Below are positions 5,563-18,025 of a stretch of DNA of 37,474 bases, in pieces. Location: contig CAZRSF010000004.1 in the NCBI GenBank assembly GCA_964602655.1, positions 1 to 37,474 on the forward strand, in the 5' to 3' direction. The notes beneath the pieces are model-generated. The model searched no databases. It was given only the letters and a program-made list of their open reading frames with translations, and was not told the origin of the DNA. The stretch is from an uncultured Candidatus Moduliflexus sp. (GTDB lineage: Bacteria; Moduliflexota; Moduliflexia; Moduliflexales; Moduliflexaceae). The position numbers and the translations under genes were made by a program. The stretch's first letter is position 1. The number at the start of each line of letters is the position of its first letter.

Positions 5563-6651
5563 TTACAAAAATTCCTCGATAATCTCTTTCATCCGGTGTT
5601 GAAACACGGCCAGATCGAACTGCGCGGCATGGCGGCGAATGGCGGCGGAATCAAATTGTCCGGCGTCGAATTGTTTGACGGTTGCAGCAAGGGCGTCCGC
5701 CGTTTTGGGGAAAAAGAAGCGCCCGGTCTGTTCCGACACGGTTTCTAAGGCGCCGCCGCCGCGATACGCAATGACCGGACGCCCGGACGCCTGCGCCTCA
5801 ACCGGCGTGATGCCGAAATCTTCCTCGCCCGAAAAAATCAACGCCTGACACTTCGACAACGCCTCTCGCACAACCTGATCCGATTGGCGGCCTGCAAACG
5901 TGATATTCGGTTTCGCCGCTTGCGCCAGCCGTTGCCGTTCCGCGCCGTCGCCGATAATCAGCAGCGGCAATCCCAACCGATTGAACGCCTCGACCGCCAC
6001 ATCAATTCGCTTATACGGTTCAAGGCGTGAGACAATCAGAAAATACGATTCAAGACGGTCTGATATGCTGAAATTCGCCATGTCAACCGGAGGATACACA
6101 ACCAGCGCATCCCGGCGATAATATTTCTCGATGCGTTGCGCCACAAAACGCGAAATCGCGATAAACGTATCCACGCGGTCGCTGCTCAACGTGTCCCACA
6201 TCCGCATGTAGGTCAGCAGCGGAGGGACGAGCAGGCGGGCAAAACGGCTATTCCAACTGGTTTCCATGTATTCGTGATACATGTCCCAGGCGTACCGCAG
6301 CGGCGAATAACAATAGCAGATATGACGGGTTTGCGGCGAGGTAATCACGCCTTTGACAACGGAATGGCTGCAACTGAGGACGACATCGAATTCGGAGAGA
6401 TCGAATTGCTCCACCGCCGTCGGCATAAGGGGCAGATACGCTCTGAATTTGCTCGCGCCGAACGGCAGGCGTTGGATAAATGAGGGGCGAATGTCGAAGG
6501 CGCGAAATTCCTCCGGCATCCGATCTGGATGATAGACCGTCGTATAAATTGGCGCGTCCGGGAACATGTCATGCAAATGAGCTAAGACGGCTTCCGCGCC
6601 GCCGCGCCCTCCTGGCGTGGCTAATCCGTCATGGACGATGGCTAATTTCAT
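5563..6651 (-). CDS. Glycosyltransferase family 4 (GT-B, group 1)
   Basis: N-terminal MKLAIVHD...GG start. C-terminal EX7E-type motif EEDFGITPVEAQASGRPVIAYRGGGALETV. 4-bp ATGA overlap with the upstream radical SAM gene. Confidence 0.85.
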   Translation of the reverse strand: MKLAIVHDGLATPGGRGGAEAVLAHLHDMFPDAPIYTTVYHPDRMPEEFRAFDIRPSFIQRLPFGASKFRAYLPLMPTAVEQFDLSEFDVVLSCSHSVVKGVITSPQTRHICYCYSPLRYAWDMYHEYMETSWNSRFARLLVPPLLTYMRMWDTLSSDRVDTFIAISRFVAQRIEKYYRRDALVVYPPVDMANFSISDRLESYFLIVSRLEPYKRIDVAVEAFNRLGLPLLIIGDGAERQRLAQAAKPNITFAGRQSDQVVREALSKCQALIFSGEEDFGITPVEAQASGRPVIAYRGGGALETVSEQTGRFFFPKTADALAATVKQFDAGQFDSAAIRRHAAQFDLAVFQHRMKEIIEEFL

Positions 6652-8087
6652 TTGCTCGCTTTTCGAAAGACTGATTCGGCAATGCGGCGAATCGTCCGGT
6701 TATGCATCAGCAAGTCTTGAATCCGATCATTCACGAAGAGGCTCGCCGCCGCTGTTCCGAAGATGCCGAATCGTTCGAGTTTGCGACGCATAGCAGCTTT
6801 ACGAATCTGCTTGCGGACGCGATGCGCTTGTTTGAGCAGGCGAATGCGTTCGGCGCGAGGAAGTTCCGGCGTCTCGAACAGCGGCTCTTCGTCCCAATGC
6901 GAGGCGTTATTCAGATATTCTTCCGGCTGATGCAGGAAATAATTCTGTTCAGTGATCCATTGAAAAATTTCGGTATTCGGGAACGGAATCAGGTTATAAA
7001 ATTTGGCGTCGAATACCGGATATTTTTGCGCGAATTGCAGGGTATTTTCCACGTCATTCGGCGTTTCGCCCGGCAAGCCGATAATGAAAAAGAGCGTCAC
7101 GTCATAGCCGATTTCGCAGGCGGTTTTGACCGCGCGGTCAATCTCGTCGAGATGTTCCCCTTTTTTAATCGCCTTCAAAATATGCTCGTTCGCGCTTTCC
7201 ACGCCGAACGAGAGATACCGAAAGCCGATTTCGAACATTCGCTTCAGCAGGTCGGCGTCAACGTGATCGGCGCGAATGCCGTTGCCGCAACGAAAGCGGA
7301 AGCCGGTCAGCCCGCGCCGCTCGATTTCGTCGCAGATGCCATAGACGCGATCTCGATGCATCGCAAAATTATCGTCAAGAATTAAGATGTCGCGATACCC
7401 CTGACGATGCCAGTATTCCAATTCATCCACAATCGGCTGGACGCTGCGAAAGCGGCAGGCGCGGCCAATCGTCGTTTTCACCGGGCAGAACGTGCAGGCG
7501 TGCGGGCAGCCGCGCGACGTGACGACGCCGATTTCGCGCGCGACGTATTTGTCTAATTCGAAGTGCTGATATTTCGGAAAGGGCAGACGATCCAATTCCA
7601 TAATAAACCGGCGGTCGCCGGTATAGGCGACGCGCCCGTCTTCGCGGCGATACAACAGACCGCCGATCTGCTCCATCGGCGTGCCTTGACAGAATTCGAC
7701 CAGCGTGTCGTCCCCTTCCAGCGTCACGCCGAAATCTATCGCCGCGCACTCTTCCAACACCTGCGCCCGCAACGTCGAGAGATGCGGGCCGCCCGCGATG
7801 ATCGGAATTTCCGGGAAACGCTGTTTCAATGCCGACAGAATGTCATAGACCGAGCGATGAAACAACGAGGTCATGCTGATGCCGATCAAGTCAGTCTCGA
7901 AGTCTTGAATTTTCTGACTGACCTGCTCGACCGAATAGCCAAGCCCCATATCAATGACTTGATGCGAAATTTCGGCCTGCGACAATTTTTCGGACAGATA
8001 TCCCAGTCCGACCGGCGGACGAACTGCGCCCCATTGACTTTCGAAACTCGGCGGCGCAAGTAATGTGACGCGCTTGAATATTCCCAT
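6648..8087 (-). CDS. B12-binding-domain radical SAM protein (class B radical SAM methyltransferase-like)
   Basis: N-terminal cobalamin-binding-like domain followed by CxxxCxxC (GCPHACTFCP) and an elongated radical SAM core. SD AAGAGGT 8 nt upstream. Confidence 0.8.
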   Translation of the reverse strand: MGIFKRVTLLAPPSFESQWGAVRPPVGLGYLSEKLSQAEISHQVIDMGLGYSVEQVSQKIQDFETDLIGISMTSLFHRSVYDILSALKQRFPEIPIIAGGPHLSTLRAQVLEECAAIDFGVTLEGDDTLVEFCQGTPMEQIGGLLYRREDGRVAYTGDRRFIMELDRLPFPKYQHFELDKYVAREIGVVTSRGCPHACTFCPVKTTIGRACRFRSVQPIVDELEYWHRQGYRDILILDDNFAMHRDRVYGICDEIERRGLTGFRFRCGNGIRADHVDADLLKRMFEIGFRYLSFGVESANEHILKAIKKGEHLDEIDRAVKTACEIGYDVTLFFIIGLPGETPNDVENTLQFAQKYPVFDAKFYNLIPFPNTEIFQWITEQNYFLHQPEEYLNNASHWDEEPLFETPELPRAERIRLLKQAHRVRKQIRKAAMRRKLERFGIFGTAAASLFVNDRIQDLLMHNRTIRRIAESVFRKASK

Positions 8088-8093
8088 CTGTGG

Positions 8094-16882: not shown

Positions 16883-16891
16883 AAAAATCCC

Positions 16892-18025
16892 TTATACGAT
16901 AGAAGTCAACACGTCAAGAGTTTTTTGCGCGCACAACTCCCAGGAAAACTGTTTGGCTCGCATCTGCCCCATTTCTCGGTAGGCTCGATGCAGGTCGCGA
17001 TCCGTCAATAATTGATGCAGCCGCTCCGCCATGTTGTCAACGCTGTACGGATCGAACAGCATCGCGGCATCCCCGGCGACCTCCGGCAGCGACGATGTAT
17101 TGGAGCAGGCCACCGGCACGCCGCACGCCATCGCCTCTAAGACCGGCATCCCGAAGCCTTCGTACAACGATGGCAGCGCAAAGACATCCGCGCCGTTAAT
17201 CAGCGCCGGCATATCCTGATCCGGCACGTAGCCTGTCCAGATCACCTCTTGCTGCAACGAGAGTCGCGTAATCGTGCCTAAAATTTCATCTTCCGGCAAA
17301 TCGCGATATTGCTGGCCGATCAGCACAAGTTTATGCGGGATGCGATGCCGTTGCTTCAACAGGTAAAACGCCTGGATCAAGCGCGGGATATTTTTCCGGC
17401 GCTGCAACGTGCCGATGCACAGGATAAACGGTTCGGGCAAACGATAGCGATTCAGCGTCGCCTGGACAACATCGCGTTCGAGCGGCTGAAAGCGCCTGTG
17501 GACGCCATGATGAACGGCGATGACCTTCTCCGGCGCGATATTGTAATAGGCTAACACATCCTGGCGTGTGGCTTCCGAAACCGTGATAATTTTGGCGGCG
17601 GCGCGGATACTGTGCTGCGTGGAACGCTTCAGCCAATAGCGCAGAGCCCGAGAAAAACAATCAGGGAAAAAGAGAAATGCGACATCGTGTATTGTCACCA
17701 CACTTTTTTTCGGCAAATACCAGAGCGGCATGGTGGACGTCGGGAAAAAATAGGCGTCTTGCGGATGCTTGATGAGTTCGAGCGGCAAACGAAGCTGCGC
17801 CCATAACAAAGGAAATTCGAGGACTCTCGCGGCGACTTCCGATGCGCCTGTCGGCGTGATGCCTAACGTGTTCAGCGGCGCGGGATCGGCGTGGCGCAGA
17901 TAGAGCGTGAACCGGTGTGCGGTGTCCGGCGCATTGATCATGGCTTGAATCAGATGGTACGCATAATAGCCCACGCCCGCTTTCTGTCCCGCTGCTGCGC
18001 CTGTCGCTTCGATGCCGATCTTCAT
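16892..18025 (-). CDS. Glycosyltransferase family 4
   Basis: MKIGIEATGA N-terminus. Motif FALPSLYEGFGMPVLEAMACGVPVACSNTSSLPEVAGDAA. Its ATG overlaps the stop of the upstream hybrid kinase (ATGA). Confidence 0.85.
   Translation of the reverse strand: MKIGIEATGAAAGQKAGVGYYAYHLIQAMINAPDTAHRFTLYLRHADPAPLNTLGITPTGASEVAARVLEFPLLWAQLRLPLELIKHPQDAYFFPTSTMPLWYLPKKSVVTIHDVAFLFFPDCFSRALRYWLKRSTQHSIRAAAKIITVSEATRQDVLAYYNIAPEKVIAVHHGVHRRFQPLERDVVQATLNRYRLPEPFILCIGTLQRRKNIPRLIQAFYLLKQRHRIPHKLVLIGQQYRDLPEDEILGTITRLSLQQEVIWTGYVPDQDMPALINGADVFALPSLYEGFGMPVLEAMACGVPVACSNTSSLPEVAGDAAMLFDPYSVDNMAERLHQLLTDRDLHRAYREMGQMRAKQFSWELCAQKTLDVLTSIV

Follow-up and report, generated by a model that had tools for sequence, protein, structure and literature searches.

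What does a glycan operon make when a radical S-adenosylmethionine (SAM) enzyme lies among its glycosyltransferases, and what does that enzyme do there? The question is raised by a 37,474-nt stretch of contig CAZRSF010000004.1 (the window, in full length) from an uncultured Candidatus (Ca.) Moduliflexus sp., in which 11 close-set glycan genes occupy the minus strand at positions 5563-18025. Coordinates of open reading frames (ORFs) and Pfam matches assign these genes to four GT4 and one GT2 glycosyltransferases, a minimal GT-C transferase, a Wzy_C-family membrane protein, an SGNH protein, an FkbM-family and a class I methyltransferase, and a class B radical SAM enzyme. We consider it likely that they form an operon specific to the Moduliflexota (KSB3) and dedicated to a decorated cell-surface glycan or glycoconjugate, for which a mechanism is proposed below. 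As a gene cluster the locus is of an ordinary kind, with two unusual features: the radical SAM enzyme is a fixed, glycosyltransferase-coupled core component, and the operon is tightly joined to a hybrid regulator. Its interest lies mainly in the clade to which the radical SAM enzyme belongs.

Gene content and organisation of the operon

Twelve genes running from 20127 down to 5563 are separated by gaps of at most 50 nt or overlap by 4-17 nt throughout. They are given here from the upstream end, with their Pfam matches in brackets, and are followed by a hairpin.

18022-20127, minus strand: cytoplasmic hybrid regulator, receiver-GAF-histidine kinase (Response_reg, GAF, HATPase_c)
16892-18025, minus strand: GT4d glycosyltransferase, first biosynthetic gene (132 bits)
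15998-16882, minus strand: class I SAM methyltransferase, 294 aa (Methyltransf_23/11, ~80 bits)
15180-16001, minus strand: soluble GT2 glycosyltransferase, core gene (Glycos_transf_2, 96 bits)
14280-15158, minus strand: FkbM-family SAM methyltransferase (Methyltransf_21, 87 bits)
13167-14270, minus strand: GT4c glycosyltransferase (104 bits)
12067-13158, minus strand: membrane-anchored SGNH/AlgX-like hydrolase or O-acyltransferase (ALGX, 33.8 bits; Lipase_GDSL_2, 33.6 bits)
10521-12053, minus strand: Wzy_C-family polytopic membrane protein, polymerase or ligase type (34.3 bits, cut-off 31.7)
9202-10470, minus strand: minimal GT-C, PMT_2/ArnT-like, membrane module alone (PMT_2, 39.6 bits, cut-off 26.1)
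8094-9236, minus strand: GT4b glycosyltransferase, 6 nt upstream of the radical SAM gene (118 bits)
6648-8087, minus strand: class B (B12-binding-domain) radical SAM enzyme, 479 aa (B12-binding, Radical_SAM)
5563-6651, minus strand: GT4a, WbaZ-like GT4, last operon gene (Glycos_transf_1, 78 bits)
5490-5559, no strand: inverted repeat/hairpin between the convergent GT4a and major vault protein (MVP)-like genes

An earlier note on this DNA had drawn the cluster as 5563-18025. The genes that it placed there were recovered, except for one GT4, and the unit proved to be larger, with the regulator gene overlapping that of GT4d by 4 nt. At the other end, a repeat search found the hairpin at 5490-5559. 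Its 28-nt arms are 86% complementary, and its RNA fold has a free energy (dG) of -39.5 kcal/mol (z = -6.4 versus shuffles), suggesting that it is a probable bidirectional terminator at the 3' end of the operon. In scans of the window for promoter and terminator consensus sequences, matches were no more numerous than in shuffled sequence, and this hairpin alone stands out as a terminator candidate.

The gene content upholds the earlier proposal of a glycan or glycoconjugate biosynthesis cluster, in which cytoplasmic GT4 and GT2 enzymes are joined by an extracytoplasmic GT-C, whose fold was confirmed, a Wzy_C protein and an anchored SGNH protein. The GT2, GT-C, Wzy/ligase-like and SGNH-type genes that had been named were each matched in Pfam, weakly for SGNH and barely above cut-off for Wzy_C. 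Five GT4 genes had been counted, and four were found; the only other ORF of at least 250 aa in the span, at 8499-9275, is antisense within a GT4 gene and was rejected as a fifth. It had also been said that the cluster holds no nucleotide-sugar synthesis genes, and indeed none was matched in any window ORF scanned.

Among the cytoplasmic enzymes, GT4a starts within the last codons of the radical SAM gene, with an overlap of 4 nt, and its PDB matches are WbaZ-1 (2f9f) and UDP-Glc:tetrahydrobiopterin glucosyltransferase (5ze7). GT4b is a paralog of GT4d (34% identical), and the two genes share a 148-nt DNA stretch at 74% identity; the true start of GT4b is probably 9218, as in the 374-aa gene call of contig L001. 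The GT2 showed no hydrophobic segment in a hydropathy scan. FkbM matches TIGR01444 above cut-off (102 bits) and RfbT weakly (20.5 bits). The O-methylation and O-acyl handling that had been predicted from the methyltransferase and SGNH genes are reasonable at the level of protein family.

The minimal GT-C was modelled by AlphaFold2 (AF2) with a mean predicted local distance difference test (pLDDT) score of 92.8, and all significant Foldseek matches of the model were GT-C enzymes (STT3, AglB, ArnT, PglB, Pmt4, ALG). An Asp at position 47 (Asp47), within the first loop, is kept without exception in 29 homologs and is the acidic residue expected of the GT-C fold. Close homologs are confined to Moduliflexota-like contigs. 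As to its donor, no polyprenyl-phosphate sugar synthase was evident, the soluble GT2 scoring only 21 bits against ArnC. The Wzy_C protein has 14 hydrophobic segments, some of them overlapping, in a crude hydropathy scan, in keeping with the roughly 12 membrane spans of its family, and the motifs LTYSRGA, with the SRG arginine, and DN-x9-G-xx-G are kept in four orthologs. WaaL-type ligases carry a catalytic His in H[NSQ]x9GxxG at the latter place. All four orthologs read D-N-x9-G-xx-G there (residues ~400-430) and have a separate VHN(I/L)AD near the C-terminus. Taken from its first ATG, the SGNH ORF spans 12067-13317 and runs 150 nt into GT4c. It probably begins instead at 13158 (MKLLKK...), which leaves an 8-nt gap and an N-terminal hydrophobic anchor. 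The protein has one N-terminal hydrophobic segment, a GDS block (S100) and a D332-x-H334 motif. PDB sequence searches with the GT-C, Wzy_C and SGNH proteins returned no meaningful match.

The operon is conserved across Moduliflexota

Four related loci cover the operon in full: those of Ca. Vecturithrix granuli and two other KSB3 contigs (L082, L085, L087), and that of Ca. Moduliflexus flocculans (L168). The window is collinear with M. flocculans DF820455.1 over 5.6-21.4 kb, at 72-85% nucleotide identity, and the same core gene order is found in all four loci. Nine proteins and the regulator recur in 4/4, and the regulator stop overlaps the GT4d start by 4 nt in all five Moduliflexota genomes, that of the window included. 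The best-conserved pair is the radical SAM enzyme, 69-89% identical to the window protein, and GT4a, 70-87% identical (70-73% in the Vecturithrix-type loci and 87% in M. flocculans). Identities are 57-87% for GT4d, 56-78% for GT2, 57-76% for GT4b, 51-75% for GT-C, 48-69% for GT4c and 46-64% for Wzy_C. Genes beyond GT4a vary among the genomes (metallophosphatase, methyl-accepting chemotaxis protein (MCP), gidA).

The class I methyltransferase and the SGNH gene are common to M. flocculans only (83% and 76% identical, respectively, in L168). The former has no ortholog in L082, L085 or L087, which carry a 179-aa methyltransferase-like gene in the SGNH position. FkbM lies within a stretch of ~1.1 kb (14117-15243) that is without counterpart in M. 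flocculans, and is an insertion private to this genome. These three genes are lineage-variable accessories. The earlier note had counted three methyltransferases, the radical SAM enzyme among them. All three genes are present, but only the radical SAM gene is fixed across the loci, so that the set of three is a trait of this strain.

Base composition varies along the operon. Wzy_C (42% GC, the lowest in the operon), SGNH (43%) and FkbM (43%) make up its low-GC part, and the stretch 10521-15158, from Wzy_C through SGNH and GT4c to FkbM, lies at 42-47% compared with 50.5% for the whole window. Because of this low GC, and because the FkbM stretch is absent from M. flocculans, 10521-15158 is the variable, probably exchanged, part of the operon. 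In M. flocculans itself, the GT4b ortholog (L168 11247-12421) breaks into two reading frames at ~12182 and is followed, before the radical SAM gene, by a gap of 545 nt. A frameshift, which would make it a pseudogene, or an error of sequencing would account for this.

The radical SAM enzyme belongs to a widespread, glycan-associated clade

Outside KSB3, full-length orthologs of the radical SAM enzyme with 40-50% identity occur in Omnitrophota, Planctomycetota, Nitrospirota/Thermodesulfovibrionia, Chloroflexota, Gemmatimonadota and Geobacter, and on contigs binned as Parcubacteria, Alphaproteobacteria and archaea, including Woesearchaeota. When 1.84 billion representatives were searched exhaustively, 5849 matched at E <= 1e-30, and ~50 representatives stood at 40% identity or above. 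We compared the surroundings of ortholog loci having at least five neighbours with those of paralog loci fetched by the same scans. A GT4 gene was fused to the radical SAM gene or at most four genes away at 12 of the 18 non-KSB3 ortholog loci, compared with 12 of the 86 paralog loci (odds ratio 12, Fisher p = 1.3e-5). Pfam searches of the 167 ORFs beside 24 ortholog loci identified 29 GT4, 8 GT2 and 4 PMT_2 proteins, together with sugar epimerases/dehydratases, DegT, Bac_transf and class I methyltransferases, as well as 14 additional radical SAM proteins, of which 11 have a B12 domain. An Omnitrophota contig (L006) has a GT4a ortholog, 53% identical, directly after its radical SAM gene. In a metagenome-assembled genome (MAG) of Geobacter, the ortholog stands among NeuB, a CMP-sugar synthetase, a KpsS/C-type capsule gene, a second class B enzyme, a GT2 and a priming transferase. 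The clade is widespread and associated with glycan genes, and its link to sugar chemistry is much stronger than could be seen by the earlier note.

Natural fusions make the same association within single polypeptides. Among the best 150 representatives, 27 are multidomain proteins of more than 600 aa. Of these 27, 19 were searched with Pfam, and in 15 the radical SAM domain shares its chain with GT4, GT2, GT56, methyltransferase or DegT domains. The architectures, with the radical SAM domain written as rSAM, are as follows.

rSAM-GT4
rSAM-GT2
GT2-rSAM-methyltransferase
GT56-rSAM-GT4
rSAM-methyltransferase
rSAM-methyltransferase-methyltransferase-GT2
rSAM-DegT aminotransferase

The fused representatives are 33-49% identical to the window protein, and those fused to DegT are 35-37% identical. 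Being so varied, the architectures represent independent fusion events, all pointing to carbohydrate substrates. For some relatives at least, fusion to DegT suggests that the substrate is a nucleotide sugar. An rSAM-GT4-GT4 protein whose last domain is of the GT4b/GT4d type was found in L002, L004 and L088.

The fusion proteins of L002 (9995-13714, in a MAG labelled Alphaproteobacteria) and L004 (9217-12933, labelled Parcubacteria) are 80% identical; they were counted as one event and not as independent fusions, and their likeness points to recent transfer or a binning error. The ortholog has another class B radical SAM gene, more distantly related, directly beside it at about one third of the non-KSB3 ortholog loci (L083/L084 11455-12927; L003 11436-12929; L011, L088, L091, L095, L098). 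In some representatives, a single polypeptide of 1000-2600 aa shows two to seven radical SAM matches.

The reaction of the radical SAM enzyme

By sequence and predicted fold, the enzyme belongs to class B, as the earlier note had assigned it. Pfam matches were obtained to B12-binding (60.8 bits, cut-off 32.1) and Radical_SAM (99.8 bits), and the CxxxCxxC motif (C194-x3-C198-x2-C201) is invariant in 51 homologs. The AF2 model (pLDDT 91) has the beta-alpha layout of a Rossmann domain at its N-terminus. This domain carries G69-x-S71 after beta3, an invariant G99-G100 after beta4, and E124-G125-(E/D), with D126 in the window protein, at the opening of alpha5. GxSx, GG and GE motifs bind base-off cobalamin in the structures of OxsB, TsrM and TokK (PMC9204698), and the enzyme probably uses cobalamin, to judge from these residues. 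Two cysteines in the B12 domain, C114 and C133, are nearly invariant. Two others outside the CxxxCxxC motif, C252 and C267 (~7334-7332 and ~7289-7287, minus strand), are invariant in the same 51 homologs. Both align with Cys of AprD4 and not with Cys of MgmA, and could serve as hydrogen-atom donor or auxiliary ligand.

We compared the protein with named families and known structures. All 40 NCBIfam matches were under cut-off and no equivalog was assigned, so membership of a named radical SAM family was rejected. Scores of named families included:

HpnJ (TIGR03471): 174 bits, cut-off 578; residues 51-413 aligned with 57-420 of 472
ApyD: 164 bits, cut-off 750
BchE, a cyclase: 131 bits
MgmA: 109 bits, cut-off 360
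Ladderane type: 106 bits
P-methylases: ~105 bits
AprD4: 82 bits

Foldseek against the PDB placed AprD4 first (template modelling (TM) scores 0.72/0.76), followed by TsrM, MgmA, OxsB, CysS and TokK. All of these top matches fall within E values of 1e-24 to 1e-20, so that structure does not discriminate between methylase and non-methylase. In sequence, the best PDB match is MgmA; a profile of the family scored MgmA at 98 bits over 324 residues (54-377) and AprD4 at 95 bits over 205 residues (185-389), the core alone. HpnJ, BchE and AprD4 are non-methylases, and ApyD and MgmA are methylases (PMC9204698, PMC10635010, PMC11796369); ApyD is a Tyr C-beta methylase, that is, an sp3 C-methylase (PMC10635010). 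The earlier note had held that class B membership implies C-methylation, and that grouping with non-methylase B12 radical SAM enzymes would speak against it. The first step does not hold, with HpnJ, ApyD and BchE as the nearest families and AprD4 as the top structure. The grouping itself is divided about in half, with HpnJ, BchE and AprD4 on one side and ApyD and MgmA on the other.

C-methylation is nevertheless the single most likely outcome, although we favour it only tentatively. The enzyme would then be a cobalamin-dependent sugar C-methyltransferase resembling GenK, GenD1 or MoeK5, and a glycan that is both C- and O-methylated is a plausible product on sequence grounds. Methylases are the majority of characterised class B enzymes (PMC12931638, PMC9204698), the protein has conserved motifs for cobalamin binding, and methylases are both the second-best NCBIfam match, ApyD, and the best PDB sequence match, MgmA. 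HpnJ itself is reported to group with MoeK5, a sugar methylase, and Fom3 when similarities are drawn as a network (PMC9204698), and ordinary SAM methyltransferases are often fused to or found beside the relatives of the window protein, as expected for multiply methylated sugars. However, no methylase family is matched at cut-off (the C-methyltransferase of RiPPs, peptides made on the ribosome and modified after translation, scores 88 bits against 282, HpnR 83 against 650 and KedN5 71 against 700), and the best family and the best structure, HpnJ and AprD4, are non-methylases that act on amino-sugar glycosides.

Almost as likely is a non-methylating sugar-radical reaction: a dehydration or deoxygenation like that of AprD4, a ring contraction or rearrangement like those of HpnJ and OxsB, or an epimerisation. 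Any of these would yield an unusual sugar, made either on the donor or on the nascent glycan. The nearly end-to-end HpnJ match, the AprD4 similarity over the catalytic core and the AprD4-like position of C252 and C267 are consistent with such a reaction. So are the distant relatives that carry a fused aminotransferase of the DegT type, whose substrates are keto-sugar nucleotides, and the reaction would suit an operon that has no nucleotide-sugar modification genes. On the other hand, the window protein has a canonical B12 domain, unlike AprD4, to which its similarity begins only at ~185; the aligned cysteines may be a coincidence; and non-methylases are a minority of the known class B enzymes.

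A proposed pathway to a decorated surface glycan

Taken together, the gene content suggests the following pathway. The data establish the genes present, their folds, the layout of the operon, its conservation and the tie of the radical SAM clade to glycan enzymes; substrates, reaction, order of steps, cobalamin use and regulation are inferred from these. In the cytoplasm, the four retaining-type GT4 enzymes and the GT2 would assemble an oligosaccharide on a membrane acceptor, with the priming enzyme, the flippase or exporter and the supply of sugar nucleotides presumably encoded elsewhere. The radical SAM enzyme, encoded between GT4b and GT4a and apparently translationally coupled to GT4a, may act on a nucleotide-sugar donor or on the residue newly added by its partner GT4. 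A 5'-deoxyadenosyl radical, derived from SAM at the [4Fe-4S] cluster, would abstract hydrogen from an unactivated sugar carbon, probably with the participation of cobalamin. The resulting sugar radical could be methylated through methylcobalamin or could undergo rearrangement, elimination or epimerisation. On the far side of the membrane, polymerisation, ligation, transfer or extension of the glycan would fall to the Wzy_C protein and the minimal GT-C, and the addition or removal of O-acyl groups to the anchored SGNH protein. The class I and FkbM methyltransferases may contribute strain- or lineage-variable decoration, presumably O-methylation, and the co-transcribed receiver-GAF-kinase may tie expression or activity to signalling.

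The product could instead be a membrane glycolipid, similar to phosphatidylinositol mannosides and lipomannan (PIM/LM) or to a glycosyl-phosphatidylglycerol, and not a polymer on a polyprenol carrier. The GT4 enzymes would then build directly on the lipid, the GT-C would extend the chain outside and the radical SAM enzyme would modify a head-group sugar. We regard this as improbable. It would explain a conserved core without priming transferase or flippase, and it draws on the PDB matches of GT4d (MshA, GlgM, PimB' and PimA), which include the two Pim enzymes, and on the best NCBIfam match of GT4a, GlcNAc-phosphatidylglycerol synthase. HpnJ, the closest named relative of the radical SAM enzyme, likewise acts on a lipid-linked glucosamine (PMC9204698). 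These GT4 similarities are generic, however, and far under family cut-offs (the GT4a match is weak, at 54 bits), priming and export genes are often unlinked, and a Wzy_C protein conserved in the core points to undecaprenyl-pyrophosphate (Und-PP)-linked repeat units or to ligation.

Returning to the surface glycan or glycoconjugate that we prefer, several observations weigh against our reconstruction of it. The SGNH and Wzy_C assignments rest on near-threshold scores. Neither the window nor five related loci contain a gene for a priming phosphoglycosyltransferase, a flippase, an ABC exporter, a chain-length regulator or outer-membrane export, and the assembly route and the acceptor are therefore not fixed by the locus. 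The window holds no B12 gene, and an Rfam scan of it at gathering thresholds detected no cobalamin riboswitch and no other RNA. As for the radical SAM step, homology does not settle the reaction, because the nearest relatives are split between methylases and non-methylases. The closeness of the core to AprD4 is comparable to that of the whole protein to MgmA, with C252 and C267 as in AprD4, and the clade is uncharacterised in all its members, NCBIfam giving no equivalog. Finally, the regulatory link is only suggested by conserved synteny and overlap, since KSB3 genomes are packed with signalling genes (PMC4312070).

Upstream regulators, host lineage and neighbouring genes

Upstream of the receiver-GAF-kinase, by 21 nt, lies a further signalling gene.

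20149-22356, minus strand: CheA-like hybrid kinase, Hpt-HATPase-CheW-receiver (Pfam)

The NCBIfam CheA score of this kinase, 357 bits, is below cut-off. It is likewise found upstream in M. flocculans, where it is 82% identical (regulators at L168 1-3355), and a link to the operon is possible. Together, the two kinases may provide chemosensory-type control of a surface polysaccharide. To judge from the collinearity, the window derives from a relative of Ca. Moduliflexus flocculans, a filamentous, gliding, strictly anaerobic bulking organism whose lineage glides by an unexplained mechanism (PMC4312070).

A broader reading joins these points, and we hold it to be rather unlikely. The radical SAM clade would be a fused or integral module of surface glycan assembly in anaerobes, and the Moduliflexota glycan would lie behind gliding and bulking. 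On that reading, the clade would bring modification of sugars at the carbon level (a C-methyl branch, deoxygenation or rearrangement), beyond ordinary sugar-nucleotide pathways, to anaerobic bacteria and archaea, including Omnitrophota and the contigs binned as Parcubacteria and Woesearchaeota. Under the receiver-GAF-kinase, beside the CheA-like kinase, the Moduliflexota glycan could be a signal-controlled surface or slime polysaccharide.

Several other genes of the window were noted. A NUDIX hydrolase gene (22353-22907, minus strand) overlaps the CheA-like gene by 4 nt, and an NAGPA-type phosphodiester glycosidase is encoded at 24648-25709 (minus strand), upstream of dapA/dapB; either of the two may have a part in the metabolism of sugar nucleotides or glycan phosphodiesters. 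The MVP-like gene (2989-5478, plus strand) converges on the glycan operon. Its 829-aa product matches the shoulder domain of the eukaryotic MVP (96 bits), a vault repeat and SPFH/Band 7, without an NCBIfam match, and the gene is unlinked to the operon in relatives. At 1484-2463 (plus strand), two overlapping ORFs of 145 and 188 aa, with no family match except a weak TPR, lie within a local GC trough (45.5% at 1001-2000).

Significance of the locus

To our knowledge, class B radical SAM enzymes come almost entirely from antibiotic, cofactor, lipid and peptide pathways. Literature searches for B12 radical SAM enzymes in O-antigen, capsule, exopolysaccharide (EPS) or polysaccharide settings brought up no paper that, judged by title and abstract, gives such an enzyme a role in cell-surface glycan assembly. 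The window offers an experimentally approachable example, a predicted soluble enzyme of 479 aa flanked by its likely partner GT4 enzymes, and the natural fusions narrow down the substrate. Once solved, the reaction would be a new type of sugar modification for bacterial glycobiology and would supply an annotation for at least ~50 protein clusters (50% identity) as well as for several thousand relatives further off. The operon is also a candidate source of the surface polymer of filaments that bulk anaerobic wastewater reactors.

Comparison with known systems

O-antigen and EPS clusters (Wzy- or ABC-dependent, with terminal methylation such as that of the RfbT or WbdD type) likewise combine a block of GT4 and GT2 genes with a Wzy_C-family protein and SAM methyltransferases, and share with the window a low-GC Wzy gene and decoration genes that vary among relatives. 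In contrast to such clusters, the window locus has no Wzx, Wzz, polysaccharide copolymerase or outer-membrane polysaccharide export protein (PCP/OPX), ABC transporter, priming transferase or sugar-nucleotide gene, and it includes a minimal GT-C, a core radical SAM enzyme and a co-transcribed receiver-GAF-kinase.

The cyanobacterial hps cluster neighbours the Hmp chemotaxis-like system. The window resembles it in that HpsO is the closest named family of GT4c, in the CheA-like and hybrid regulators upstream and in its gliding filamentous host (PMC4312070). An Hps-like slime polysaccharide was considered but is retained only within the broader reading above, as only GT4c resembles an Hps protein, below cut-off, and the other Hps matches are generic (NCBIfam bits/cut-off: HpsO 186/575, HpsP 77/550, HpsE 45/300). 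No pilus or pseudopilin genes were found in the window.

For the radical SAM enzyme, the closest precedents are HpnJ on a hopanoid glycoside, AprD4 and GenK on aminoglycosides, and MoeK5 on a phosphoglycolipid antibiotic (PMC9204698, PMC12931638). HpnJ, the best-scoring family over nearly the full length, has the same B12-like domain and radical SAM core. It acts after a glycosyltransferase, on glucosamine attached to a membrane-bound aglycone, (PMC9204698); its chemistry, ring contraction of the glucosamine glycoside, is itself only proposed. Unlike HpnJ, the window protein scores far under the 578-bit cut-off and is partnered by GT4, GT2, Wzy_C and GT-C proteins; the window has no hopanoid genes (hpnH, hpnI, hpnK, shc). 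GenK, GenD1, Fms7 and MoeK5 are of the same class B and have carbohydrate substrates (PMC9204698, PMC12931638). These four, compared here by description only, belong to secondary-metabolite clusters of actinomycetes and not to surface glycan operons. We know of no fusion of any of them to a glycosyltransferase.

The best structural match, AprD4 (PDB 6fd2), is the radical SAM 1,2-diol dehydratase of apramycin biosynthesis, and its substrate is also a glycoside, the pseudodisaccharide paromamine. Its sequence likeness to the window protein is limited to the core (residues ~185-390), and unlike AprD4 the window protein has a canonical B12-binding domain. A review network lists AprD4 as unrelated to the B12-dependent enzymes (PMC12931638). 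AprD4 is cobalamin-independent, and this indicates that a similar overall fold can work without cobalamin.

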